A DNA stretch of 64,000 nt from Candidatus Micrarchaeia archaeon (GCA_038871515.1 JAVZHX010000001.1:248212-312211); one strand, 5' to 3'; positions 2,679 to 62,638 are shown, counted from the stretch's first letter. A program made the numbers and translations. The notes: generated by a model from the letters alone, not told the origin.

Positions 2679-3047
2679 GTGGGTGGTGGATTAGAATTAG
2701 AAGGCCCGGCCATTCGAACATGAAAAGCCGTGAGTTTTGGAGATGCTACAGCTCCTTTTAGCAAGTGCAGAGAAAGGCTTTTAGTAGTGGACGGGCTCAC
2801 GGATCGCTTGCGCTTTCCGCTTACACCCCCACCCTATCAACAGGATCTGCTATCCTGGCCTTGGACTGCCTCGTTTTGAGAATGGCTTCGACCTTAGATG
2901 CTTTCAGGTCTTATCCACTGGCGCGTGGCTGCCCGGCAGTGCTTTTCACAACCGGTAAACTAGAGGCGCCGATTCCCTGTTCCTCTCGTACTCAGGGAAT
3001 CCTGCTCTCAGGCAGTCAGCACTCCTAGGAGATACTACCGAACTGTC

Positions 3048-3098
3048 TTTGTCGCCCCAGATGGCAAGAAAATTAATAGTGAAATTTGCCATCGGGGG
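3048..3098 (-). mobile_element. 51-nt ORF-less mini-intron in 23S (between consensus GTCGCGA and GACAGTTCGG)
   Basis: Insertion inside a universally conserved 23S sequence; contains internal hairpin GATGGCAA...TTGCCATC. Confidence 0.5.
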
Positions 3099-3109
3099 TC
3101 GCGACGTTC

Positions 3110-3144
3110 TTTAGGCTAGAAGGGGTTATGGATAACCACTCCTA
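3110..3144 (-). mobile_element. 35-nt ORF-less mini-intron in 23S (between GCTGGGTTCA and GAACGTCG)
   Basis: Insertion interrupting conserved GAGCTGGGTTTAGAACGTCG; leaves an 11-nt exon (3099-3109) between two introns. Confidence 0.5.
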
Positions 3145-3465
3145 TGAACCCAGCTCGTGTAGGTCTTTAATGGATGAACAACCCAACCCTTGGCGGCTCC
3201 TGCACCGCCAGGATGACCTAGGCCGACAGCGATGTACCAAACCGCGAGGTCGATGTGTACTCTCGCCCGCGACGAGCCTGTTACCCCCGGGGTAGCTTGT
3301 CTGACAGCTTGGACCCTCAACAAAAGGGATACCAAGGTTCGTTAAGCCCCTCTTTCGAGCCTGAATCCCACGCTTTTAAGGATTCAGTCAGCCCTGCATT
3401 TGTCTTTGACCCTTACCGGCGGATTTTCAGCCCCATAGCTAAGGCTATAGTGGATTCTGACCCGC

Positions 3466-4374
3466 CTAAGCAGAGCATTCCCCGGTTTTTAAACCCCGAC
3501 CTATAATTTTTTCCAAATCAGCAAGATCCGCGGTTACTGTTATTGGTAAATCAGAAAATTTATCTAATAAATTTTTATAAGTGTAGATGACAACATTGTA
3601 GCCAATACCAGTAAACACATGGACTTTTTCTTTAGTTCTTTTTATGTGCGGTTCCCAGTCAAATCCTACCACTTCTATTATCAAGTTTTTATTGGGTATG
3701 AGAAAGTCCGGGTAGTACCTAGTGACTTTTTTCTCGTATATAAAATTGATTCTTTTTTCTGTCAAAAATTTTGCTAACTCTATTTCCTTTAGACTTCTAT
3801 ACTGCTTTTCATCGAAAGATATTTTCTTTCTGAAAGATTTTCTGAATATTTTTTCAAGTCGTTTTTGTAACTGGGATTCAGACAACTTGGCAATTGAATT
3901 TCTTCCGCCAAGCCTGCCAATTTCTCTGTAAGGGTTTTCTCCATATTTTTTTGTTAATGCCGCTTTAGCTAGGATGCGTCTTTTTATCTCTATATTTTTA
4001 TTCCTCCTGGTTAATTCATCCAATTTAATTTTGCCTTTTTTACCTAACACACTATGTAAGTTTCTCCCATATTTTTTTCTTAACTTATTAATCCCCTTCT
4101 TGCTAGCAACCCTAAGAATATCCGAAATGCTTGTTTTTTTATAGCCGAAGTCATCAATATTGATTGAAAATTCATCGGCCCATTTTTTTACTAGCATTGC
4201 TGGCATTGTTCTCTCCCCTCTCCAGTACATTTTAAGACAACCATAGGGTAGTGCTAGTTTTTCTGTTAACTCCCTAAGCGTCGTAGAATTAGTTCTTAAA
4301 CTAAGCTCTAGAAAAAATCTCCGTCGCTCACTTTTTGATCTAAATTTTATTCTCTCATTCAATTCAATGTCCAT
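3466..4374 (-). CDS. Intron-encoded protein: N-terminal HTH region plus C-terminal putative PD-(D/E)xK (DUF559/Vsr-like) nuclease; putative homing endonuclease
   Basis: No LAGLIDADG motif; C-terminal YYPDFLIPNKNLIIEVVGFDWEPH resembles restriction-endonuclease-like core; paralogous to ORF 9862-10617 in the 16S intron. Confidence 0.45.
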   Translation of the reverse strand: MDIELNERIKFRSKSERRRFFLELSLRTNSTTLRELTEKLALPYGCLKMYWRGERTMPAMLVKKWADEFSINIDDFGYKKTSISDILRVASKKGINKLRKKYGRNLHSVLGKKGKIKLDELTRRNKNIEIKRRILAKAALTKKYGENPYREIGRLGGRNSIAKLSESQLQKRLEKIFRKSFRKKISFDEKQYRSLKEIELAKFLTEKRINFIYEKKVTRYYPDFLIPNKNLIIEVVGFDWEPHIKRTKEKVHVFTGIGYNVVIYTYKNLLDKFSDLPITVTADLADLEKIIGRGLKTGECSA

Positions 4375-4385
4375 GTTTTGTTATA
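3480..4385 (-). mobile_element. 23S rRNA intron (domain V) carrying a non-LAGLIDADG ORF; boundaries approximate
   Basis: 23S consensus resumes at about 4386 (GGCGGTACGCCCTCGATAAGG) and below about 3480; AT-rich insert with ORF. Confidence 0.55.
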
Positions 4386-5872
4386 GGCTTCCGGGTTTAA
4401 AATCCTTTGGGCGCCCTTGTTTCCTTATCGAGGGCGTACCGCCCCAGCCAAACTATCCATCTGCCGGTGTCCCCTTTCAGGTTAGGAACACAGCAGCTGT
4501 AGAGCGGTGTTTCACTTTCGCATTCACACCCCCCGCAAGAGGTGTTTCGACGCTCCCGCTTACGCTGTGCAACAACCACCGTATCCCAACGACAGACTAT
4601 AGTAAAGCTCCACGGGGTCTTCGTTTCCCCCTAGAAGTCCTCGGCATCTTCACCGAGTAGTGAGTTCACCAGGTCCCAGATAGGGACAGCGGGACGCTCG
4701 TTATGCCCTTCATGCAAGCCACCAATTAAGCGGCGAGGTATTACGCTACCTTAAGAGGGTCAGAGTTACCCCCGCTCTTTGCCGGCGCTTTGCTCCATTG
4801 GACTGGAGTTTGACGTACCGGTAGTGAGCAGGCATCGCCCCCTATACTAAGCCTTTCGGCTTTGCAGGGAGCTGTGTTTTTGGTAAACAGTCGACGTCCC
4901 CTTGTCACTGCGACCTGCGGTTGCAGCTTGCGCCACAACTGCAGGCATGGCTTCTCCCGAAGTTACGCCACTGGATTGCCGAGTTCCCTTACCTGGGTTC
5001 TCCTGACACGCCTTGGCTTCCTCTGCCAGCAGCACCTGTACGAGTTCTAGGTACGAGCTCGTGGAATCGCTGCCAGCTTCCTTTTCACGGGCTCAAGGAA
5101 TCAGCGGAACCACCTTGCGATGGCCTTCCCAGAGTTAGACTGCTTCTCCTCATAACGAGTCTCTGCAGTCTTGCAGAGGTTAGATGAGCTCTCGCTCACT
5201 CCACCTATCCCCAAGCGTCAGAAGCTGGCCTTGTGTCGCCACGTCTACCCACGAGGCACTGGAATCTTAACCAGTTTCCCTTTTGCTCCCGAGTAATTAG
5301 CTGGGAGCTTAGGATCGGCTTACTCTTAACTGACGAACATTGTTAAGAAAACCGTGTGCTATCCGGCGTCCAGGATTCTCACCTGGATTTGCTGTTACTA
5401 ACACCAAGATATTTGTTTCTGACAGGTCCATTGGAACTCACGCCCCAACTTCTGCCCTGCCAGAACACCCCCCTACCAGATGATGCTTGCGGCATCCTCC
5501 GGGGTATCGGCACCTGGCTTAGCCCCGGTAATCTTCAGAGCCTGCACTCTCGACTGGTCCGCTGTTACGCGTTGTTTAAAGGATGGCTGCTTCTGAGCCT
5601 ACCTTCCAGCTGTTTTAGAGTGGAGACTCCTTTGAGATTAGCACTTAGCCAGGATTTAGGGGCCTTAACCTCGGTCTCGGTCGTTCCCGTCCCGGCATGC
5701 TAGCTTACCCAGCACGCCCGACTCCCATCTTCTACGGTGATTGTGAATTCGGAGTTTGAAAAGACAGTAGAGCCTTTCGGCTCCGTTCTGCCTGATCAGT
5801 GCTCTACCTCACAATCCACCTCCAATGGGGCTATCCTAAGGGATACTTCGGGGGGAACCCGCTTTAGCGAGT

Positions 5873-6745
5873 TTAAAGGGCAGCATACAAAGATTCCATA
5901 TCTTTCTTTTTTCTTATAATTGGAAAATCTTTAAATTTGTAAAAATTGTTTATTCCATAAATGTAAAGAGCAAATTTGTTTTTGTATGAATAGATATGGG
6001 AAGTTCGGATACCAACCTCCTTTAAGATTTTTTTGATAAATTGTAGAGATTCTAGATTACTTTGGTAGAAAGCTAATTTTATCTTTCTTATTTTTTTATA
6101 GGTCTGTTTGCTTGTGACGTAGCCTTCTGCATCGAAAAATCCAGCCAGATAATACTTCCAACATTTTGGATTTTCTTTTATTATTCTTGGTGTTTTCCAG
6201 TATTTCTGATCCATCGGCATTTCAAAGATATTTTCAAAGAAGAGGACGATTGGTTTTGAATTTACACGAAGACGGTATGAATTTTTGTCCATGTCTATTT
6301 TTGCTTCAACCAAGAAAATCTCATTGAAAATATCTCGCATTAACTGGATCCACTGCAATGCACCATTACCTGACTGGGTTAAGGCAATTGTATATCGATC
6401 CCCTTCTAATTTTGAAACGGAACCATCTCTCAACACTCCGACAAGATAAGCAAGTTTTGAATCCAGAAATTGGGGGAGTCTGACCCCCTTTTTACTTCTG
6501 GATTTAAATTCAGAAATGTTTTGGAACACTTCATCATAATTTTTCTTGCGTTCGTCTAAGAGGTCAAGTAGATAGTCGAGAGGAGTAACTCCGCTACTCA
6601 AGCGATAATATTTAGTCGATTTTTTGAGTAGAGGAAACTCATCTCCGAACTGTCTTAGTATCTGAGGGTCTACTTTTACGTAGAGATTTTGGTTTTTCAG
6701 ACAACTTAGGTAATTTGGTATTGGTATCTTCCATTTTTCCCACAT
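5873..6745 (-). CDS. LAGLIDADG homing endonuclease (double-motif)
   Basis: Motifs LAYLVGVLRDGSV and YYLAGFFDAEGYV. Confidence 0.8.
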   Translation of the reverse strand: MWEKWKIPIPNYLSCLKNQNLYVKVDPQILRQFGDEFPLLKKSTKYYRLSSGVTPLDYLLDLLDERKKNYDEVFQNISEFKSRSKKGVRLPQFLDSKLAYLVGVLRDGSVSKLEGDRYTIALTQSGNGALQWIQLMRDIFNEIFLVEAKIDMDKNSYRLRVNSKPIVLFFENIFEMPMDQKYWKTPRIIKENPKCWKYYLAGFFDAEGYVTSKQTYKKIRKIKLAFYQSNLESLQFIKKILKEVGIRTSHIYSYKNKFALYIYGINNFYKFKDFPIIRKKKDMESLYAAL

Positions 6746-6800
6746 GTCACTAGATTTATTTGCTGCCCTTATAAACTTATCGCCAAGTTCGATAGGACTA
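5875..6800 (-). mobile_element. 23S rRNA intron (domain II region) with LAGLIDADG ORF; boundaries approximate
   Basis: Flanked by 23S sequences GGTAGAGCACTGATCAGG...GGTTAAGGCCCCTAAAT below and GGTGACCTGCGTGTAGGGG above. Confidence 0.55.
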
Positions 6801-7551
6801 TCACCCCTACACGCAGGTCACCCGAGCGGATATACCAGCACCGGTTGCGGGCCTCCACCAATCTGAGGATTGGCTTCGCCCTGCCCGCGTGTAGATCACA
6901 TTGGCTTCGGGTCTGATGAAAGTGATTTATGGCACTTTCGTACCACCTGCCTCGCCCTTTCGGGTTGCGCAGTCTCGCTTTCGCTCCGCCTTTCGGCTCA
7001 CCACTTCCATCAACTCCTTGGCTCTTGCTTCAAGAAGAACGATGCAACCCTGCTCAATCTCCCGTCGCTCTACATATTTCTACATATCGCTTCCAGGAGA
7101 CCGCATTCCTTTCGGGCCGCACCTTCTGTAGCCACTCAGTTTCAGGCTCTTTTAACTCCCCTTTCGGGGTGCTTTTCAGCGTTCGCTCGCGCTACTTGTG
7201 CGCTATCGGTCTCAGGTTATATTTAGAGTTGGAAGTTGATGCTCCCATGTTCGCGCCCAATACTCAATGGACGCTACTCCGCGCATCCCCTCCCCTCCTG
7301 TTTTTCGCTTACGAGGCTTTCACTCTCTTTGGCAGCGCTTTCCAGCGCACTTCAGCTAGACAGAAGGAGAATGGAATGCATCACATCTCCCACAAGTTGC
7401 CCTGAGGGATTCGAATTGCCTCTGTGTGGCTTTCAGTCGCCCTTACTCACCACATCCCATTTGGTTTCTTTTCCTGCGGGTACTAAGATGTTTCAATTCC
7501 CCGCGTGCTCCTTCACCTCTTTTGGAGGTGAATGATTCGGCAATCCCAGGT

Positions 7552-8469
7552 TCAAGGGCTGCCTGCGCCTATCAGGCTGCCGCAAAGAGATTTTTTAAAG
7601 AGCAAAGAATTTGGGTGGGAAACAGGTATCAATTTTAAAAATTTTAAAATATTCACGCGCGGTCTTTTATTCACATACAATCTAAATGCAAATGAATTTT
7701 TTCTAGGAAGCGACTTGTGTAGAGTCGATATTATTTCTTGCTTTTGAAGTATTTTTCTAATGTCCTCCAAAGGTGGACAGGCAGATTTATCGGACCATGC
7801 CTGATATAAACCTACCCTACCACTTTTCAAACTTTTATCCCCTTCCGCATCATAAAAACCTGCTATGTAATATTTCTGAAATTTGAATGGAGCGTTCAAA
7901 ATTATTTGAGGTGTTGGTTTGAATTTATTTTTGAATTGACCTACCACATCAAGAAAAGCATAGAGCGGCTTTGAATTTAAAGAGAATTCATGGGTGCCTT
8001 TTCTGAATCCTCTATAATGGAGCTTTAGAGCAAATGTTTTTTCTAATAATGGGTTAATTGTGTCAGTTATCCATCGTCTGTCTTTTTGGGATATGTGAAT
8101 CTGGTATTTGTGCGATGACATACCTCCATCTCTGAAAGCACCTAAAATATAACAAAGTTCTGGTGTTAGTTTTTTTACTAATTTCATTGGCTTGTCTGAT
8201 CTTTCACCTCGGATATACCCTATCTCTCTAAAAGTGAAATTCCATAGAGAAGTTTCTAGTTTTGCCAATTTTGAAATCAAATCTAAAGAGGGGTACCTAG
8301 ACTTGCATAGTATACATCTTAGTGTGCTTTCTTTGTAGTTAAGGTCAATCTCGTTTGTTTTTGCCGTTTTTATCAAAACTCTTAATTTTTTTATATATTC
8401 TCGTGTTGGTACTAATCTAAGAGTTGGATACTCCTGCGCCATCGAGGTTAAATAATTGGGTAGTAACAC
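7552..8469 (-). CDS. LAGLIDADG homing endonuclease (double-motif)
   Basis: Motifs LCYILGAFRDGGMS and YYIAGFYDAEGDKS. Confidence 0.8.
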   Translation of the reverse strand: MLLPNYLTSMAQEYPTLRLVPTREYIKKLRVLIKTAKTNEIDLNYKESTLRCILCKSRYPSLDLISKLAKLETSLWNFTFREIGYIRGERSDKPMKLVKKLTPELCYILGAFRDGGMSSHKYQIHISQKDRRWITDTINPLLEKTFALKLHYRGFRKGTHEFSLNSKPLYAFLDVVGQFKNKFKPTPQIILNAPFKFQKYYIAGFYDAEGDKSLKSGRVGLYQAWSDKSACPPLEDIRKILQKQEIISTLHKSLPRKNSFAFRLYVNKRPRVNILKFLKLIPVSHPNSLLFKKSLCGSLIGAGSP

Positions 8470-8500
8470 TATCCAATTTTGGATCCACCGTAATTTAAAG
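7570..8500 (-). mobile_element. 23S rRNA intron near the 5-prime end (about position 110-150) with LAGLIDADG ORF; boundaries approximate
   Basis: Exon TTGAACCTGGGATTGCCGAAT...GGGAATTGAAACATCTTAGTACCCGCAGGAAAAGAAA resumes below about 7556; upstream exon GCTGCGATAAGCCCAGGG at about 8520. Confidence 0.55.
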
Positions 8501-8709
8501 GTTTCATTTCCAATACTCTTCGCAGCAGAACCCTGGGCTTATCGCAGCTTGCCACGGCCTTCCTCGCTACCTGAGCCAAGCCATCCCCTGAGCGGCATGA
8601 CTCACTGCACTCGTTGATGCCAGGAACTGTAGCTTCTTCTCCTCTCACGGCTTCATGAACATCAGCCACTTCATTCAGAAAAACTTTCTGAATTGCATAC
8701 ATGTGCGGA

Positions 8710-8801
8710 TGGACTCGGCGAGATGTTCAGCAGTTTATCTGCTTTTGAACTCGCGGCCTCCTCCTCGCAAAGGAGGCGCTCTACCGCTGAGCTACGAGCC
8801 C
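8710..8801 (-). tRNA. tRNA-Ala(TGC) in the 16S-23S spacer, with an about 20-nt insertion in or next to the T-loop (possible non-canonical intron)
   Basis: Acceptor GGGCTCG/CGAGTCC with G3:U70, D-arm GCTC AGCGGTA GAGC, anticodon arm CCTCC TTTGCGA GGAGG; T-stem GCGAG/CTCGC encloses 27 nt (TTCAAAAGCAGATAAACTGCTGAACAT) instead of 7. Confidence 0.75.
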
Positions 8802-8947
8802 ATAAGAGGCTTCAAGAACATTAAGAGTGAGCTTTCGCCTTACGCTCGCCTTGCACTCACTTCCTCGTTCTCATTTCATAGAACGATTTAAGGAGGTGAT
8901 CTATCCGCAGGTTCCCCTACGGATACCTTGTTACGACTTAGCCCCTC

Positions 8948-9601
8948 TCATGAAGAATTAGCTCGACGAGACCCTTTCGAATCTCGCCTCACTAAAACCT
9001 CACTTGAGTGACTTGACGGGCGGTGTGTGCAAGGAGCGGGGACGTATTCATTGAGCTGAAGAGACACCAAACTTTTAGTTGGGACTGTCATGAAAAACTT
9101 TCTTACCTCTTGTCTACCATTTATATCCAGGCAGACACGTTTCCCACTCGTGAAAGTGGTCACTCGAATGCCGACACTTCGCAACAAAGTTGCGAGAAAA
9201 TCTCTTATTTCCCTAGAAACAACAGCGAACCTGATTCTTGGATATGGTGGTTTGCGCCTCTGGTCTTTCTCAAGCCAACCCTCACTATCAAACCAACCGG
9301 CTGCATAGGCGAGTTGCTCTTCCAGAGAACCACGCCGAATTGCTTGAGGCACAGAAAGTAAATATGACTTTCTTCCGCGAGGAATTTCATACTTCATAGT
9401 GAGCATATTAACTATGTTTATGGACACTAATCTCACTCGGCAGTTCCTCACATCTTCATGGGCTCCATCACTGCGGAACATTAATGCCACCTTTCTACGA
9501 AAGGATGGATTGAAAATACGAATATCAACCCGATTCCTCCTAGTTTCGATATGACCGTCTCCACTCACAAGACCCGCGAGATAAGCTTCTCTGGTACTCA
9601 A
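8948..9601 (-). CDS. LAGLIDADG homing endonuclease (double-motif); the last 35 codons of the ORF track are read-through into the 16S 3-prime exon
   Basis: Motifs LAGLVSGDGHI and LAYAAGWFDSEGWL; tail NEYVPAPCTHRPS... is a translation of conserved 16S exon sequence. Confidence 0.75.
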   Translation of the reverse strand: MSTREAYLAGLVSGDGHIETRRNRVDIRIFNPSFRRKVALMFRSDGAHEDVRNCRVRLVSINIVNMLTMKYEIPRGRKSYLLSVPQAIRRGSLEEQLAYAAGWFDSEGWLEKDQRRKPPYPRIRFAVVSREIRDFLATLLRSVGIRVTTFTSGKRVCLDINGRQEVRKFFMTVPTKSLVSLQLNEYVPAPCTHRPSSHSSEVLVRRDSKGSRRANSS

Positions 9602-9681
9602 ATAATCACCTCTGGTGTCTCCTCATCCGCTCGAGTTCACTCAGAATAGTTCAACTAGTGGACTATTCCGATTGGTGACAA
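9053..9681 (-). mobile_element. 16S rRNA intron (between AGTAATCGC and TGAATACGTCCC) with LAGLIDADG ORF; boundaries approximate
   Basis: 16S consensus AGTAATCGC ends at 9682 and TGAATACGTCCCCGCTCCTTGCACACACCGCCCGTCA resumes at 9052. Confidence 0.55.
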
Positions 9682-9837
9682 GCGATTACTAGGGATTCCA
9701 GCTTCATGAGGGCGAGTTTCAGCCCTCAATCCGAACCTGGGCCGAGTTTGGGGATTAGCTCCTCCTCTCGGAGTGGCAACCCATTGTCTCGACCATTGTA
9801 TGCCACGTGTAGCCCGGGAGATTCAGGGCATACTGAC

Positions 9838-10662
9838 TTCGGCTGAACAATTGGCGTAAGATTAGAAAATATTCTTGAGTTCATGTACTTTCGTACAGAT
9901 ATAATCGTAAGGTCCTTTCAACTCCTCATAATCGCTATGTTGAAGCGGTAGTTCTGTTTCGATAACTGCGATTAATTTAATCTTATTATTTAAGAATTTT
10001 GTTTTATATCCTTGATACGCCAGCTCTCTGATTCTTTCCGTTTGTTTTCTCCTGTTGATGGTGTGCAAACGTTTGCATTGAATACCGATATTAAATTTTT
10101 TTATGTATATATCGACAATTGATTTATTATTTATTGGATAATTTATCTTACATTCTATCCCTTTGTTTTTCAGAAAATCGGCTACTTCTTTTTCCTGAGT
10201 GCTAAATCTTTTTGCTAAGGATCTCTGCGCTCCTAGCTGCCTTGCTTTAGAAGCTTTCTCTGAAAGAGCATTTGCTTTGAACCATCCCTTGGATTCTTGT
10301 TCGGATTTTTTGAAATTATCTCTTATCCTATTTTCAGATATTCGTATGTTTCCGAGTTTTGCTAAGAAATTCTCTGCAGTTCTGATTTGCATTTTCTTTA
10401 CCTTTCCGGATTCGTATTTGTGCACATTCTTGCTGATGCCTAAAAATTTTTCAAATTGTGGTTGCGACATGCTTAGATTTAGTCTTAGTAAAAGAATATA
10501 CCTGGGGTTGTTGGAAAGAGTTTCCGCACTTATTTTTGTGTAATTCTTAGAATCACGTCTGAAATTCGCAATTAAATTTTCTAGTCCATATTTTGTTGTT
10601 GAAATTGCTGGCATAGTTATATTACGGAGCAAGGATATTTTAATCTTACGGACCAATTGTTC
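9838..10662 (-). mobile_element. 16S rRNA intron (between GGGCGACGGTAG and GTCAGTATGCCC), 825 nt, with non-LAGLIDADG ORF
   Basis: Exon ends map precisely to 16S consensus; intron termini are reverse-complementary (TGAACAATTGG / CCAATTGTTCA) as expected for a bulge-helix-bulge splice motif. Confidence 0.7.
9862..10617 (-). CDS. Intron-encoded protein: XRE-like HTH plus putative PD-(D/E)xK (DUF559/Vsr-like) nuclease; putative homing endonuclease
   Basis: HTH-like LSMSQPQFEKFLGISKNVHKYESG; C-terminal VADFLKNKGIECKINYPINNKSIVDIYIKKFNIGIQCK parallels ORF 3466-4374; ORF-track start at 10710 lies in the exon, first in-intron Met at 10617. Confidence 0.45.
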   Translation of the reverse strand, partial: TMPAISTTKYGLENLIANFRRDSKNYTKISAETLSNNPRYILLLRLNLSMSQPQFEKFLGISKNVHKYESGKVKKMQIRTAENFLAKLGNIRISENRIRDNFKKSEQESKGWFKANALSEKASKARQLGAQRSLAKRFSTQEKEVADFLKNKGIECKINYPINNKSIVDIYIKKFNIGIQCKRLHTINRRKQTERIRELAYQGYKTKFLNNKIKLIAVIETELPLQHSDYEELKGPYDYICTKVHELKNIF

Positions 10663-10747
10663 ATCTACCGTCGCCCTCTCCTTCCTCCTACTTAACGTAG
10701 GCAGTCCCAACAGAGTGCTTCATCTCCGGAGAGATGAATCGCAACTG

Positions 10748-11275
10748 TCAGCAAGGGTCTCGCTCGTTTCCGGACCGCATGAGTGCTTTTTGGGAGTGCT
10801 TGAGAAATTTTTTAACAAATGCAAAAAACTCTTTTGGAGTAAGAATTGCAAGCTTTCCTTCTATGAACCTTGCTCTGAACCCCAAAAGCTCCAGAAGCAT
10901 CTGCTCCTTTTCTGATGCTCTTGCGAGGTAAGGAGTATTTCCTTTTACTCCGCCGCAGGAGTCAAACAAACCTGCTAGGTATGAAGCAGAGTAGTCGTTC
11001 TTCTTCCTGAAAACATCAAGCTGATTTCTCTCAGCTTCCTCAAAGAATTTTCTGTATGCTGAATGGTAAAAGTAAATTTCATTTTCATTCAGCTGAATTT
11101 TCTGAGGAGGAATTTTGAGAGTTTTCAGCGCTTCTTTCAGGAAAATCTCGCGTATCTCTCCGCTTCCTCTTATTCCAACTCCTCTGGAAGCTTTCCTTCC
11201 TTTCCATAAACCAATCACATACGCCAGTTCAGGCGTCATTTTTATTTTCATCTCTCTCACTCCGGATGCACCCAT
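10748..11275 (-). CDS. LAGLIDADG homing endonuclease (small, double-motif)
   Basis: Motifs LAYVIGLWKG and YLAGLFDSCGGV; ORF reads about 20 nt into the downstream exon. Confidence 0.75.
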   Translation of the reverse strand: MGASGVREMKIKMTPELAYVIGLWKGRKASRGVGIRGSGEIREIFLKEALKTLKIPPQKIQLNENEIYFYHSAYRKFFEEAERNQLDVFRKKNDYSASYLAGLFDSCGGVKGNTPYLARASEKEQMLLELLGFRARFIEGKLAILTPKEFFAFVKKFLKHSQKALMRSGNERDPC

Positions 11276-11283
11276 GCGGTTTA
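10769..11283 (-). mobile_element. 16S rRNA intron (between GTTAAGTCCGGTAAAC and GAGCGAGACCC), about 515 nt, LAGLIDADG ORF
   Basis: Exon consensus on both sides; repeated CCGGTAAAC / CCGGAAAC at the junctions. Confidence 0.65.
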
Positions 11284-11326
11284 CCGGACTTAACCGGACA
11301 CTTCACAGCACGAGCTGACGATGGCC

Positions 11327-11432
11327 TTGTGCGAGAACGTCGCTTCTCCTTATAATCATAAATTGACGAGTGTCTGAGGACATTCAGAACAATATTCTTT
11401 ATATTTGTGTCTAATTAAGAGCGGCGTTCTCT
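11327..11432 (-). mobile_element. 16S mini-intron, about 106 nt, ORF-less (between GGTGGTGCAT and GGCCATCGTCAGCTCGTG)
   Basis: Insertion inside universally conserved GGTGGTGCATGGCCGTCGTCAGCTCGTG; AT-rich. Confidence 0.6.
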
Positions 11433-11535
11433 ATGCACCACCTCTCGGCTCGTCAGGCAAGATCTTCAGTCTGGCCTTCATACTGCCGTCGCTCCCGGTG
11501 ATATTCCCGGCGTTGAATCCAATTGAACCGCAGCT

Positions 11536-11608
11536 TGTGGAACTCCAACCCCTCGTTTACACTAACCGACATATACGCGTCGGAATTGGGTCAAGGGTTT
11601 GGAATTAA
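11536..11608 (-). mobile_element. 16S mini-intron, about 73 nt (between GGGGTGGA and AGCTGCGGTTCAATTGG)
   Basis: Interrupts conserved GGGGTGGAGCCTGCGGTTTAATTGGA. Confidence 0.55.
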
Positions 11609-11622
11609 TCCACCCCTTGTGG

Positions 11623-11651
11623 TATGGGAAACAATAAGAATACTTATTGTT
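11623..11651 (-). mobile_element. 16S mini-intron, about 29 nt (between GGGGGAGCA and CCACAAGGGG)
   Basis: Interrupts conserved GGCGGGGGAGCACCACAAGGGGTGGA; palindromic AACAATAAGTATTCTTATTGTT. Confidence 0.55.
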
Positions 11652-11667
11652 TGCTCCCCCGCCAATT

Positions 11668-11698
11668 CAGGAAGAACTAGCAATTGCTAATTCTTTTT
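11668..11698 (-). mobile_element. 16S mini-intron, about 31 nt (between AAAGG and AATTGGCGGGGG)
   Basis: Interrupts conserved AAACTTAAAGGAATTGGCGGGGGAGCAC; near-palindrome AAGAATTAGCAATTGCTAGTTCTT; only a 16-nt exon (11652-11667) separates it from the previous intron. Confidence 0.55.
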
Positions 11699-11724
11699 CC
11701 TTTAAGTTTCAACCTTGCGGCCGT

Positions 11725-11765
11725 AATTGGGGAAGCCCGCGCCGATAAATTTCGGTTAGGCTTCT
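11725..11765 (-). mobile_element. 16S mini-intron, about 41 nt (between CTGGGGAG and ACGGCCGCAAGG)
   Basis: Interrupts conserved GCCGCCTGGGGAGTACGGCCGCAAGG. Confidence 0.5.
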
Positions 11766-11792
11766 CTCCCCAGGCGGCAGACTTAACACCTA

Positions 11793-11833
11793 CGCTACGG
11801 CACTGCCGTAACCCTAAGTTACGGCAACACCAC
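11793..11833 (-). mobile_element. 16S mini-intron, about 41 nt (between GCAGACT and TAGGTGTT)
   Basis: Interrupts conserved GATGCGGACTAGGTGTTGGG; internal hairpin TGCCGTAAC...GTTACGGCA. Confidence 0.5.
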
Positions 11834-11866
11834 AGTCTGCATAATTTACTGCTAGGGCTACTCGGG

Positions 11867-11897
11867 TGTTTAGTAACTCGAGAAGGTGCTCGAATCA
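11867..11897 (-). mobile_element. 16S mini-intron, about 31 nt (between GGATTAGATA and CCCGAGTAGCC)
   Basis: Interrupts the universally conserved 790-loop sequence GGATTAGATACCCGGGTAGTCC; internal hairpin TCGAG...CTCGA. Confidence 0.55.
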
Positions 11898-12873
11898 TAT
11901 CTAATCCGATTCGTTCTCCTAGCCTTCGTCCCTCACTGTCGGACGCGTTTTGGCCAAGCGCCTTCGCCACTGGGAGTCCTCACAGGATTAACGGATTTTA
12001 CCCCTACCCCGTGAGTACTCTTGGCCTCCCCCGCTCCCAAGCCCGCCAGTATTCTCTGCACTCCTTCGAGTTGAGCCCGAAGATTTCACAGAGAACTTAG
12101 CAGGCCAGCTACGGACTCTTTAGGCCCAATATACGTGGATACCACTCGAGCTGCCGGTGTTACCGCGGCGGCTGTCACCGGTCTTACCCAGCTCTTATTC
12201 CACAAGCTCCTTAAGCTTGTGAAAAGATGCTCGCGTGGAGCATCACTCAGAATCCCCTCGTCACGCTTGCGCGCATTGCGAAGGTTTCGCGCCTGCTGCA
12301 TCCCGTAGGACTGGAGCCCTTGTCTCAGTGCTCCTCTGGGGGCGCCAACTCCCATTGCCCCCACCGATTATCGGCTTGGTGGGCCGTTACCCCACCAACT
12401 ACCTAATCGGAAGCAGTCTCATCCTAAGGCGGAAATGGCTGCATTTCGCCATTCCTTTTGGGCTATGAAGCGTTCCAGCATCCATAGCCTATGTGGTATT
12501 AGCCTCAGTTTCCCGAGGTTATCCCCCTCCTTAGGGTAGATTGACTACTCGCTACTCAGCCGTACGCCACCCCTCCTAGCAGAAGGGGTAGACTTGCATG
12601 GCTTAGTCGGATTCTGATAGCAGTACCCTCCAGCAGGATCAACTGGAGTTTTTCACGTTTAGAGCACACTTCCGCAAGTTCGGCGTAAGCACCACTAATC
12701 GCTCACTTCTCCTGTTCTTGAAGCCTCAGTCAAACCCAAACCTGCTTGGATTTCCATCAGATTGTGTGCTATAGAGGAAAGGTATCTATCACAGCACGAA
12801 ATGAGAATTCGCGCTCCATTTACGCCGGAGTCTATAGCGTCCGCACGGCGAATAAAGATTATACACACTCTTA

Positions 12874-60313: not shown

Positions 60314-60475
60314 ATGGAAAAGCTGAAAAAATGTGAGAGGTGTGGCTTGTACACAATGAAGGAGCAATGCCCGAAGTGTGGTGAGAGAACTAGAAGCGCA
60401 CATCCACCAAAGTTTTCCCCAGAGGATAAATACGGGAAATACAGGAGGATGGCGAGGTTTGGTGGTGTTGTATGA
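60314..60475 (+). CDS. nop10: H/ACA RNP protein Nop10
   Basis: 53 aa, KCERCGLYTMKEQCPKCGE...; classical position after aIF2alpha. Confidence 0.8.
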   Translation: MEKLKKCERCGLYTMKEQCPKCGERTRSAHPPKFSPEDKYGKYRRMARFGGVV

Positions 60476-61245
60476 AAGGGACTTTTATAATTTCAAAAAA
60501 AGGAGTTAAGCTGAAAAACCCAATTCTGATAGAGGGGCTGCCAGGCATTGGCTTGGTTGGAAAGCTTGCAACTGAGCATTTGATAAAGGAGCTGAAAGCA
60601 GAGAAGGTTGCTGAGCTGTATTCGGAGCACTTCCCGCATCAGGTGCTTATGCTGAAGAAAGGGACGTTGAGGATGCTGAAGAATAAATTCTATGCTTGGA
60701 AAAACCCAAAGAGGAATGAGAATGACCTTCTTCTGCTTGTCGGAGACGTGCAGGCGGTAACACCTGAAGCCCAGTTCAGAGTTTGCAATGCAATACTGGA
60801 TTATTTTGAGAAGATGAAGGGAAAAACAATATACACTTTAGGCGGTTATGGAGTTGGAAAGATTGTTGAAACGCCAAGAGTTTTTGGCTCAGCAACTCAT
60901 CCAGAAGTTGTTGAGGAGCTTAAAAAATATGGGGTTGTTTTTGGGGAAGCAAACGGCTCAATTATTGGAGCTGCTGGGCTTCTGCTTGGTTTGGGGAAAA
61001 TAAGAAGAATGAGGGGAGCATGCCTTATGGGGGAAACCCACGGCGGTTATGTTGATGCAAAATCAGCAAAAAGCGTTTTGAGCGTGCTCACAAAAATAAT
61101 TGGTGTGCAGGTTGATTTGAACAAGCTTGAGGAGAGGGCTAAGGAAACTGAAAAGTTTATGAAGAGGATGGAGGCAGAAATTGAAAAGCAGAAAAGCGGC
61201 AGGGAGGGAGTGCTGAAAGGGGATGAGCTGAGTTACATAAGATGA
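60472..61245 (+). CDS. PAC2-family protein (proteasome assembly chaperone-like)
   Basis: N-terminal ILIEGLPGIGLVGKLA motif. Confidence 0.6.
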   Translation: MKGTFIISKKGVKLKNPILIEGLPGIGLVGKLATEHLIKELKAEKVAELYSEHFPHQVLMLKKGTLRMLKNKFYAWKNPKRNENDLLLLVGDVQAVTPEAQFRVCNAILDYFEKMKGKTIYTLGGYGVGKIVETPRVFGSATHPEVVEELKKYGVVFGEANGSIIGAAGLLLGLGKIRRMRGACLMGETHGGYVDAKSAKSVLSVLTKIIGVQVDLNKLEERAKETEKFMKRMEAEIEKQKSGREGVLKGDELSYIR

Positions 61246-61246
61246 A

Positions 61247-61379
61247 GCGGCCGTCATCTAGAGGCACCCAGCGTGCGCTGGTGCTGGATAACCTGGTGGG
61301 CTTGAGGAATGCTCAAGCTCGGGCAGTAGGATCTGAGCTTCCCAAGCTCAATGCCCGGGTTCAAATCCCGGCGGCCGCA
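61247..61379 (+). tRNA. tRNA-Gly(CCC) with an about 60-nt intron in the D-loop
   Basis: Acceptor GCGGCCG/CGGCCGC, D-stem ATCT/GGAT enclosing 69 nt, anticodon arm TGAGC TTCCCAA GCTCA, T-arm CCGGG TTCAAAT CCCGG; closely parallels the adjacent tRNA-Gly(TCC). Confidence 0.65.
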
Positions 61380-61382
61380 TAT

Positions 61383-61455
61383 GCGACCGTAGTCTAGCCT
61401 GGTAGGACTTTGGCCTTCCAAGCCAACGACCCGGGTTCAAATCCCGGCGGTCGCA
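61383..61455 (+). tRNA. tRNA-Gly(TCC)
   Basis: GCGACCG-TA-GTCT AGCCTGGTA GGAC-T-TTGGC CTTCCAA GCCAA-CGAC-CCGGG TTCAAAT CCCGG-CGGTCGC-A. Confidence 0.9.
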
Positions 61456-61456
61456 C

Positions 61457-62638
61457 TCATTTTAATAAAAAGTAACCAACAGAAAAACAATCGCCAAGCC
61501 CAACTGTTATTTTCGGTTGAGGGATGAGCAGGGCGGGCGCAAAGGATGCATCGTTTTTGAATTTTGTTTTTTTGAATTCCTGATATTTTTTAACTCCCTT
61601 CCTATTCACCTTTGCTTCTTTTAAAAACCTCTCAAGCTCTGCAAATGAAGCATTCCTCCCTGTTGCCGCTTTGTATGCCGCAAGAAGAGAGCCGAAAAGC
61701 AAACCTTCCTGGCTGGGTTTGCCAACGTCAAATGAAAATGAAGGGGAATGGAATACAATGCTGTTGAATCTTTCGCACAATTCATCGCACGCTTCCAATA
61801 AGTTTCTATTTATCCGAAGCGCTTGCTTCAGCTGTTTCAACTCATACTCATCAAACCCAACGCTGCTGGAAAGAGGGAGGATGTTTGATGCAACCTCGCG
61901 GAGTATTTTCGAACTTTGGAAGTTTCCAAGCTCAACATGAATTTTTATTTTTCTGTTAATCCTCCTCCACTCCTCAAGCTGATTTGCCACTTCCTCTATT
62001 CTATGTTTAAATCTATCCTTCAAAGTCAAATTGTGAAAACCAGATATGAAAACGTGGTTGAGTTTTTTGATTATCTCTTTGCTGCACCTTGCAAATTCCT
62101 CATCAATTTTCATAACTGAGTTGCGAGGGTTCCATGAAAGGATGAGGCGGTTGGAAGATGGTGCAACAAATCTGCCAAGCCTATAACCTTTTTTGAATTC
62201 AAGCACAAGGTGAATTGGCACCTCACAGCTCACGGAAACTCTGTCAGCTGTTTTGAAACAATTCCTTGCAACAAAAATATTTTCTGGTTTTTCAAATAAT
62301 TTCATCTGCTTTCTGTCTTTTAATAAAACATGCACATAGGAGCGCACGCCGAGCATTGAGGCAGCATTCGCCATATTGCCCGCCTGCCCACCCATCCTCT
62401 CCTCATCAAAACCAAGCTTCTTAATAAGAGTTTTAATGGTTTTTTTGCTTGTTTGAATTTCCCTCTGCTTCCCTTCTTTAACACACGTGAGGAGAACACG
62501 TGATATTTGCTTTGGTGGTGTTTCATTTGTCAGGTGCTTTACAACATCCACATTAACATTATACGCAAACATTGCGTTTTTTGCAATTCCCTTTCTTGCA
62601 TGCTCAAGCGCACGCGCGTATAAGTCAACCCATTCCAT
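61457..62638 (-). CDS. ADP-dependent sugar kinase (ADP-PFK/ADP-GK family)
   Basis: GGQAGNMAN (GGNA-type) and C-terminal GLGDCFSVG (GxGD catalytic Asp) motifs. Confidence 0.7.
   Translation of the reverse strand: MEWVDLYARALEHARKGIAKNAMFAYNVNVDVVKHLTNETPPKQISRVLLTCVKEGKQREIQTSKKTIKTLIKKLGFDEERMGGQAGNMANAASMLGVRSYVHVLLKDRKQMKLFEKPENIFVARNCFKTADRVSVSCEVPIHLVLEFKKGYRLGRFVAPSSNRLILSWNPRNSVMKIDEEFARCSKEIIKKLNHVFISGFHNLTLKDRFKHRIEEVANQLEEWRRINRKIKIHVELGNFQSSKILREVASNILPLSSSVGFDEYELKQLKQALRINRNLLEACDELCERFNSIVFHSPSFSFDVGKPSQEGLLFGSLLAAYKAATGRNASFAELERFLKEAKVNRKGVKKYQEFKKTKFKNDASFAPALLIPQPKITVGLGDCFSVGYFLLK

Follow-up and report, generated by a model that had tools for sequence, protein, structure and literature searches.

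Two putative BHB introns flanking a six-nucleotide micro-exon in the D-loop of a Micrarchaeota tRNA-Gly(CCC) gene

How can a tRNA-Gly gene whose acceptor, anticodon, and T arms are perfect give rise to a tRNA if its D-stem encloses 69 nucleotides? This question is raised by the first gene of a tandem tRNA-Gly pair in a stretch of 64,000 nucleotides (GC content about 43%) from a Candidatus Micrarchaeia archaeon (GCA_038871515.1 JAVZHX010000001.1:248212-312211), the whole of which is called the window here, with positions counted from its first letter. The tRNA-Gly(CCC) precursor occupies 61247-61379 of the plus strand (133 nt) and has a perfectly paired acceptor stem, GCGGCCG at 61247-61253 against CGGCCGC at 61372-61378, followed by the discriminator A61379, besides an anticodon arm at 61334-61350 (TGAGC/TTCCCAA/GCTCA) carrying the anticodon CCC and a T arm at 61355-61371 (CCGGG/TTCAAAT/CCCGG). 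A preliminary description, made from the sequence alone, had noted the perfection of these arms, the TTCCCAA anticodon loop included, and direct reading of the sequence bears it out. The same reading agrees with that description on the D arm, given that the sole candidate D-stem is ATCT (61256-61259) with GGAT (61329-61332), enclosing 61260-61328, which is exactly 69 nt. The description went on to propose a single non-canonical intron of about 60 nt within the D-loop. The non-canonical, BHB-type interruption of the D-loop stands, but the single intron does not, and its place is taken by two introns with a micro-exon between them: very probably, the D-loop of this tRNA-Gly(CCC) holds two BHB introns of 30 and 28 nt flanking the 6-nt micro-exon CCUGGU.

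The second gene of the pair, tRNA-Gly(UCC) at 61383-61455 of the plus strand, starts 3 nt downstream of the first and is intron-less, as previously described, being recognized directly by ARAGORN and by Rfam with 70.1 bits; it is probably co-transcribed with tRNA-Gly(CCC). Neither gene encodes CCA. On the upstream side lies a gene for a PAC2 proteasome-assembly chaperone (60472-61245, plus strand; Pfam PF09754, 4e-53), whose stop codon ends 1 nt before tRNA-Gly(CCC) and which provides a conserved synteny anchor. The best homologues of this PAC2, where named, belong to Candidatus Micrarchaeota or Micrarchaeia, and the next ones, at 57-70% identity, to Gugararchaeum, Burarchaeum, and Anstonellales, which places the window in an uncultivated Micrarchaeota (DPANN) archaeon. 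On the downstream side, a convergent ORF for an ADP-dependent kinase on the minus strand (61457-62638) terminates 1 nt beyond tRNA-Gly(UCC), and the packing of genes is very tight at 61243-61247, 61379-61383, and 61455-61457. There is no obvious AT-rich promoter box upstream of the tRNA-Gly pair, and therefore both tRNAs may share a transcript with the upstream operon, which contains primase, GINS, the ribosomal proteins L44e and S27e, eIF2-alpha, Nop10, and PAC2.

Standard tools do not see the tRNA-Gly(CCC) gene as it stands. Both ARAGORN and Rfam at its gathering threshold missed 61247-61379, and a permissive Rfam search returned a partial match at 61323-61379, of 26.4 bits against a cut-off of 29. 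This match covers only the 3' two-thirds of the gene, the expected outcome for an interrupted D-arm.

The insert was scanned for BHB motifs, in which two 3-nt bulges, one per strand, border a helix H of 4 bp, with a helix h' on the side of the intron; h' has at least 6 bp in both motifs that were found. The preliminary description had pointed to the region around 61258-61330 as the place for a BHB motif, and BHB-compatible folds are indeed present there, in the form of two separate motifs, with none spanning the insert whole. In the first motif, helix H is formed by AUCU at 61256-61259, the 5' strand of the D-stem, with GGAU at 61286-61289; the bulges are AG|A (61260-61262) and AA|C (61290-61292), helix h' comprises 6-9 bp within the hairpin 61263-61285, and the outer helix h is absent. 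In the second motif, H pairs CCUG at 61292-61295 with CGGG at 61320-61323, the bulges are GU|G (61296-61298) and CA|G (61324-61326), h' has 8 bp (61299-61306 with 61312-61319), and h is reduced to the single pair A61291:U61327. Since the first motif lacks h and the second has one A:U pair in its place, both are of the relaxed HBh' type, and motifs of this kind need an enzyme of broad specificity (PMC3239211, PMC5829648). When the 69-nt insert was shuffled 3000 times with its dinucleotides preserved, 448 shuffles contained one strict motif and 0 contained two consecutive motifs; taken together with the conservation of the gene next to PAC2, this makes the interrupted gene more than a product of chance.

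The limits of the introns follow from the site of cleavage, which lies between the second and third bulge nucleotides in the crystal structure of the ARMAN-2 enzyme with RNA (PMC12397907). With this rule, and all on the plus strand, exon 1 covers 61247-61261 (acceptor GCGGCCG, U8, C9, D-stem AUCU, A14, and G15), and intron 1 would be the 30 nt of 61262-61291, at position 15/16. The micro-exon CCUGGU (61292-61297) would supply residues 16, 17, 17a, G18, G19, and U20, that is, including the G18G19 pair of the D-loop, and intron 2 would be the 28 nt of 61298-61325, directly after U20, its ends being uncertain by 1-2 nt. Exon 3 (61326-61379) then brings G, U, and A21, the D-stem strand GGAU, C26, the anticodon arm with CCC, the variable loop AUGC, the T arm, and the 3' acceptor strand down to the discriminator A. 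The intronic total of this two-intron model is 58 nt. Since C61292 belongs both to the 3' bulge of the first motif and to helix H of the second, only one of the two motifs can be ideal at a time.

Evidence for these exons comes from orthologous genes. An exact pattern built from the 3' 37 nt of the 3' exon recovered 79 archaeal loci for Gly(CCC) among the species representatives of GTDB, and a family-specific pattern added 8 further loci in metagenomes. In all, the double-insert tRNA-Gly(CCC) is represented by 15 distinct sequences, derived from independent MAGs of Micrarchaeota and from metagenomes, in which the interrupted gene adjoins the same PAC2 gene wherever upstream DNA was retrieved and examined; on the contigs with PAC2 homologues at 82-91% identity, the interrupted tRNA lies directly downstream. 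In the alignment of the 15 sequences (A1), most exon columns and all six columns of the micro-exon are invariant, exon 1 being near-invariant and exon 3 invariant in all but 2 columns, while nearly all substitutions and every indel are confined to the two hairpins, whose interiors vary in sequence and length across the family. Intron-less Micrarchaeota genes for the same tRNA (L028, L049, L052, L019, L024, and others) have the D-arm ATCT-AGCCTGGTA-GGAT, which is precisely exon 1 (ending in ATCTAG, the point through which the interrupted genes agree with it), plus the micro-exon CCTGGT, plus the A GGAT of exon 3. The hexamer CCTGGT is thus the core of the D-loop, AGCCTGGTA, of intron-less orthologues in both Micrarchaeota and Aenigmatarchaeota.

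Each of the two predicted intron sites, 15/16 and after U20, occurs alone in relatives. A Ca. Micrarchaeum sp. gene (L062) has a single strict BHB intron of 39 nt, with helix H formed by CCUG/CAGG and the 5' splice site after CCUGGU, and its predicted splicing leads exactly to AGCCUGGU|A, with the D-loop AGCCUGGUA. The other site is represented by two Bilamarchaeum genes (L063 and L064) with inserts of 32 and 97 nt after A14-G15, where an intronic GGGC or GGAC can pair with the D-stem strand GUCU as helix H. These are compatible with an intron at 15/16, and would splice to AGUGGCA and AGUGGUA, D-loops that are found in intron-less Anstonellaceae genes.

These comparisons bear directly on the idea of one long intron of about 60-64 nt, for which hairpin 1 would contribute the 5' bulge and hairpin 2 the 3' bulge, with CCUGGU being discarded. 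ARAGORN still calls a tRNA-Gly in the single-intron products of 69 or 71 nt, and, the two-intron total being 58 nt, length alone does not discriminate between the models. We nevertheless hold such a long intron to be quite unlikely, given that the outer bulges are joined by no 4-bp helix, so that no single BHB extends across the insert, and that each hairpin has a complete BHB of its own. Its product would have the D-loop AGGUA or AGAGGUA, without a conserved G18G19: the sole remaining GG, that of AGAGG, is altered to AGAAG in L002, a change that keeps a pair of an intron hairpin. The CCTGGT that would be thrown away is invariant in 15/15 sequences and equal to the core of the intron-less D-loop.

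Could the gene instead be a decaying pseudogene or an assembly artefact, its GGG codons being read by the neighbouring tRNA-Gly(UCC)? The failure of the standard finders to detect tRNA-Gly(CCC) speaks for this explanation, and wobble could in principle let tRNA-Gly(UCC) read GGG, but the family makes it very improbable. The exons remain invariant in 15 sequences while PAC2 diverges to 82% protein identity, the substitutions in the insert preserve the hairpins, and the interrupted gene persists in most relatives though Gly(UCC) is absent at the locus. An artefact is opposed by the finding of an identical insert in independent assemblies (L001 and Logan).

Regarding the second gene, the tandem arrangement Gly(CCC)-Gly(UCC) recurs in L002, L088, L090, and L091. 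The tandem tRNA-Gly(UCC) is limited to this one subclade, compared here, together with the window, with another one (L003, L007, L030, L054, and others) that has a Lon-protease gene directly after the interrupted tRNA-Gly(CCC), and therefore the tandem pair is not an obligate unit. As to the tools, the calls of ARAGORN in L002-L007 begin inside intron 2 and rely on a spurious acceptor stem. Two of the recovered loci, L009 from a Saccharimonadales MAG and L046 from a MAG labelled "bacterium", carry an archaeal-type tRNA-Gly(CCC) near-identical to the Micrarchaeota genes, and these are probably mis-binned DPANN contigs.

The hairpins themselves are conserved as structures rather than as sequences. 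The sister subclade has a wholly different interior in hairpin 2, made up of a GC stem with a UUCG-type loop and a flanking UGAR/YGAN internal loop. Over the alignment, 97.3% of the cells are paired in the proposed fold, and displacing the partners by 1-3 columns lowers this figure to 28-43%. In both h' helices the first pair alternates between G:U, A:U, and G:C, that of the second motif passing from G:U to A:U or G:C. The covariation score did not exceed its shuffle control, 38-154 of 500 shuffles reaching the observed values, a consequence of the 92% identity within the family and of the constancy of the H helices; covariation is thus supporting evidence and not proof, and orthology is the stronger evidence.

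We also observed, in the region equivalent to 61303-61316 of the intron 2 hairpin, that the members of the sister subclade (L003, L007, L030, L054, L068, L070, L089, L090, and L092-L094) share a conserved symmetric internal loop, 5'-UGAR/5'-YGAN, with the potential for tandem sheared G·A pairs, under a GC stem closed by a 4-nt loop, which is UUCG, UUAA, UUAG, or AAAU. The window, L002, and L091 have a continuous Watson-Crick helix here.

That the hairpins are stable and conserved as structures would also suit a mature tRNA that retains the insert as an expanded D-arm with two extra hairpins. We give this reading hardly any credence, and we know of no precedent for a tRNA with such a D-arm. The intronic GGAU mimic holds the 5' strand of the D-stem in exact BHB geometry, the H helix of the second motif would sequester G18G19 and keep them from contacting the T-loop, and the hairpin sequences vary freely, unlike the functional parts of a tRNA.

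With two introns as the preferred reading, their exact boundaries have to be settled among several registers. For intron 1, the sequence of the window alone admits three overlapping registers, two of which, 61264-61289 (H CTAG/CTGG) and 61263-61290 (H TCTA/TGGA), were rejected for an A·C mismatch in helix H of 13/15 relatives. The mismatch arises from a T-to-C change at the equivalent of 61285 (alignment column 40) in those 13/15, and the same change turns a G:U pair into G:C within h' of the chosen register, 61262-61291, which is the only one to remain paired throughout the 15 sequences. For intron 2, the canonical register 61298-61325 is preferred because it has four standard H pairs in 15/15 sequences and because it accounts for the changing pair 61299:61319. 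The register 61299-61324 (H CUGG/UCGG, leading to a D-loop of 13 nt) is less favoured, since in L002 the C:G pair of its helix h is replaced by C·A and since it takes no account of the covarying pair 61299:61319.

The canonical register of intron 2 leaves a D-loop of 11 nt, and the approximately 66 intron-less orthologues that were recovered have 7-10 nt. It is here that a shifted intron 2 deserves consideration, with boundaries at 61297-61326 or 61298-61327, a relaxed or asymmetric BHB, and the 9-nt mature D-loop AGCCUGGUA, a variant differing from our best explanation in the boundaries of intron 2 only. Its product equals the D-arm of the intron-less orthologues, position 61326 varies (G, A, or C) as a base of an intron would, and the helix could slip by one position, with CCUGGUGG facing CUCGGG. 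We judge it to be a serious but minority option, since the 4-bp helix H would contain a mismatched A·C or A·A in every family member and the h pair would be lost, and since L062 has the canonical register working at that very site. Moreover, an 11-nt D-loop fits within standard tRNA numbering (17a, 20a, and 20b), of which it is the maximum.

Under the preferred boundaries, the archaeal splicing endonuclease, which in Micrarchaeota is probably of the broad-specificity epsilon2 type, would cut each predicted bulge between its second and third nucleotides, and an RtcB-type ligase would join the pieces into a tRNA of 75 nt with the D-loop AGCCUGGUGUA, reading ...CCUGGUGUAGGAU... across the junctions. 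The predicted product is GCGGCCG UC AUCU AGCCUGGUGUA GGAU C UGAGC UUCCCAA GCUCA AUGC CCGGG UUCAAAU CCCGG CGGCCGC A, in which U8, A14, G15 with C48, G18G19, and A21 are all present. If the 3' site of intron 2 were 2 nt further on, the product would be of 73 nt, with the D-loop AGCCUGGUA and the reading ...CCUGGUAGGAU. After in silico splicing, ARAGORN recognizes either the 75-nt or the 73-nt sequence as tRNA-Gly(CCC); the program accepts several spliced models, so that it does not discriminate among them. A search of the ORFs of the window with M. jannaschii EndA gave no match, a result of little weight given that it covers only 64 kb.

This arrangement would impose an order on the processing. 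The intronic GGAU mimic would hold AUCU until intron 1 is removed, and only thereafter could AUCU pair with the true GGAU at 61329-61332. Were ligation to begin only after all four cuts, the hexamer would keep no partner but the excised intron 2 and would be lost; one intron would therefore have to be cut and its exons ligated before the other is cut.

Thermodynamic folding was also considered. The minimum free energy (MFE) of the precursor is -68.2 kcal/mol, against -56.3 for the proposed BHB fold, and the MFE structure pairs GGATAACCTGGTGGGC with the T arm. The MFE structure of the mature tRNA is likewise not a cloverleaf, and because of this MFE folding cannot arbitrate between the models. 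When the 5' 87 nt are folded alone, the first BHB and hairpin 2 are obtained, which fits their formation during transcription. The complementarity behind the MFE structure extends from 61286-61301 (GGAT-AACC-TGG-TGGGC) to 61353-61368 (GCCCG-GGTT-CAA-ATCC), and it could compete with the correct folding of the precursor. The top hit of the raw scan, an apparent BHB with an intron at 61296-61363 (GGAT-AACC...TGGGC with the T arm), was dismissed because its cutting would delete the anticodon, and its pairing is broken in 4 family members that have GAGC; it is an effect of the complementarity between D-loop and T arm that also drives the MFE.

The interrupted tRNA-Gly(CCC) is not alone in this genome, in keeping with the preliminary description, which had linked it to other interrupted RNA genes, and the window confirms these in a tRNA-Ala and in the rRNAs. 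The tRNA-Ala(UGC) gene (8801-8710, minus strand), which has the G3:U70 pair, contains a T-loop intron of 20 nt (8743-8724) at 59/60, where introns have also been reported in tRNA-Cys and tRNA-Pro of ARMAN-2. Its motif is a strict hBHBh', with the T-stem GCGAG/CTCGC as h, TTCA/TGAA as H, GCAG/CTGC as h', and the bulges AA|A and CA|T; ARAGORN missed the gene, and Rfam matched 8746-8801 only. The rRNA operon around it (2761-12649, minus strand) is greatly expanded, and its rRNA genes match archaeal models, with the LSU spanning 4.9 kb against a model of 3.0 kb and the pieces of the SSU lying between 8902 and 12649. Inside the rRNA spans, ORFs with matches to LAGLIDADG homing-endonuclease domains are found at 5873-6745, 7552-8469, and 8948-9601, and three other ORFs in the spans (3466-4374, 9862-10710, and 10748-11275) gave no significant Pfam match. 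Micrarchaeota are mentioned in published work on archaeal group I introns (PMC6125680).

The individual elements of this structure are already published: introns in archaeal D-loops, tRNAs with several introns, and pairs of neighbouring introns within a single loop have all been described. The closest case is in ARMAN-2 (Ca. Micrarchaeum acidiphilum), also of the Micrarchaeota, where 56% of the tRNA genes are interrupted and an epsilon2 splicing endonuclease cuts relaxed BHB motifs (PMC3239211, PMC5829648), so that the lineage combines a broad-specificity enzyme with many interrupted tRNA genes, as the host lineage here probably does. In the pre-tRNA-Pro(GGG) of ARMAN-2, the T-loop is interrupted twice, by adjacent introns at 53/54 and 59/60 that lie 6 nt apart (Fujishima 2011, PMC3239211). 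Both tRNAs come from the same phylum and have two BHB introns in one loop with a 6-nt exon between them, but here it is the D-loop of tRNA-Gly(CCC), at 15/16 and after U20, and not the T-loop that is interrupted, and intron 1 is a relaxed HBh' with a D-stem strand as H, whereas the ARMAN-2 tRNA-Pro motifs are described as strict hBHBh'.

Single D-loop introns are known from Aeropyrum pernix pre-tRNA-Thr(UGU), where the intron is excised in vitro by the endonuclease alone (PMC3241643), and from Methanopyrus kandleri pre-tRNA-Glu(UUC), with an intron at 20b/21 in addition to the canonical one at 37/38 (PMC5829648). They resemble the present ones in being non-canonical BHB or HBh' introns of the D-loop, intron 2 lying approximately at the M. 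kandleri position, and differ in that each tRNA has one D-loop intron and no micro-exon and in that their hosts are Crenarchaeota or Euryarchaeota with (alpha-beta)2 enzymes. Multi-intron archaeal tRNAs are known too (PMC4033280, PMC8450103), with up to three introns in Thermoproteales, and the need to remove closely spaced introns sequentially was noted for tRNAscan-SE 2.0 (PMC8450103). These Thermoproteales tRNAs likewise have several BHB introns so close that their motifs interfere, unlike tRNA-Gly(CCC) in phylum and enzyme type. In the literature compared, from which the tables of Sugahara 2007/2008 and the supplement of Fujishima 2011 stood apart, we found no report of two introns in one D-loop.

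Given that ARAGORN and Rfam miss the gene, Micrarchaeota genomes would seem to lack tRNA-Gly(CCC), and disrupted tRNA genes yet to be identified were already suspected in these lineages (PMC5829648). Recognizing the double D-loop intron thus corrects the tRNA complements of DPANN MAGs. It also extends the double-intron loop from the T-loop of ARMAN-2 tRNA-Pro, the only comparable published case, to the D-loop. Relatives with zero introns, with one at either site, or with both make the steps of intron gain traceable within one phylum. We tentatively suggest that this tRNA may be the first to be described with a pair of introns in its D-loop, an arrangement conserved throughout a Micrarchaeota clade, that its micro-exon would be spliced in an ordered manner, and that 15/16 and 20/21 may be recurrent hot spots of intron gain in Micrarchaeota tRNA-Gly(CCC). 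With a micro-exon lying between two BHB introns, cleavage and ligation are constrained in their order or coupling, and, if the proposal is true, this tRNA would be a natural substrate for testing how the archaeal endonuclease and RtcB are ordered or coupled.
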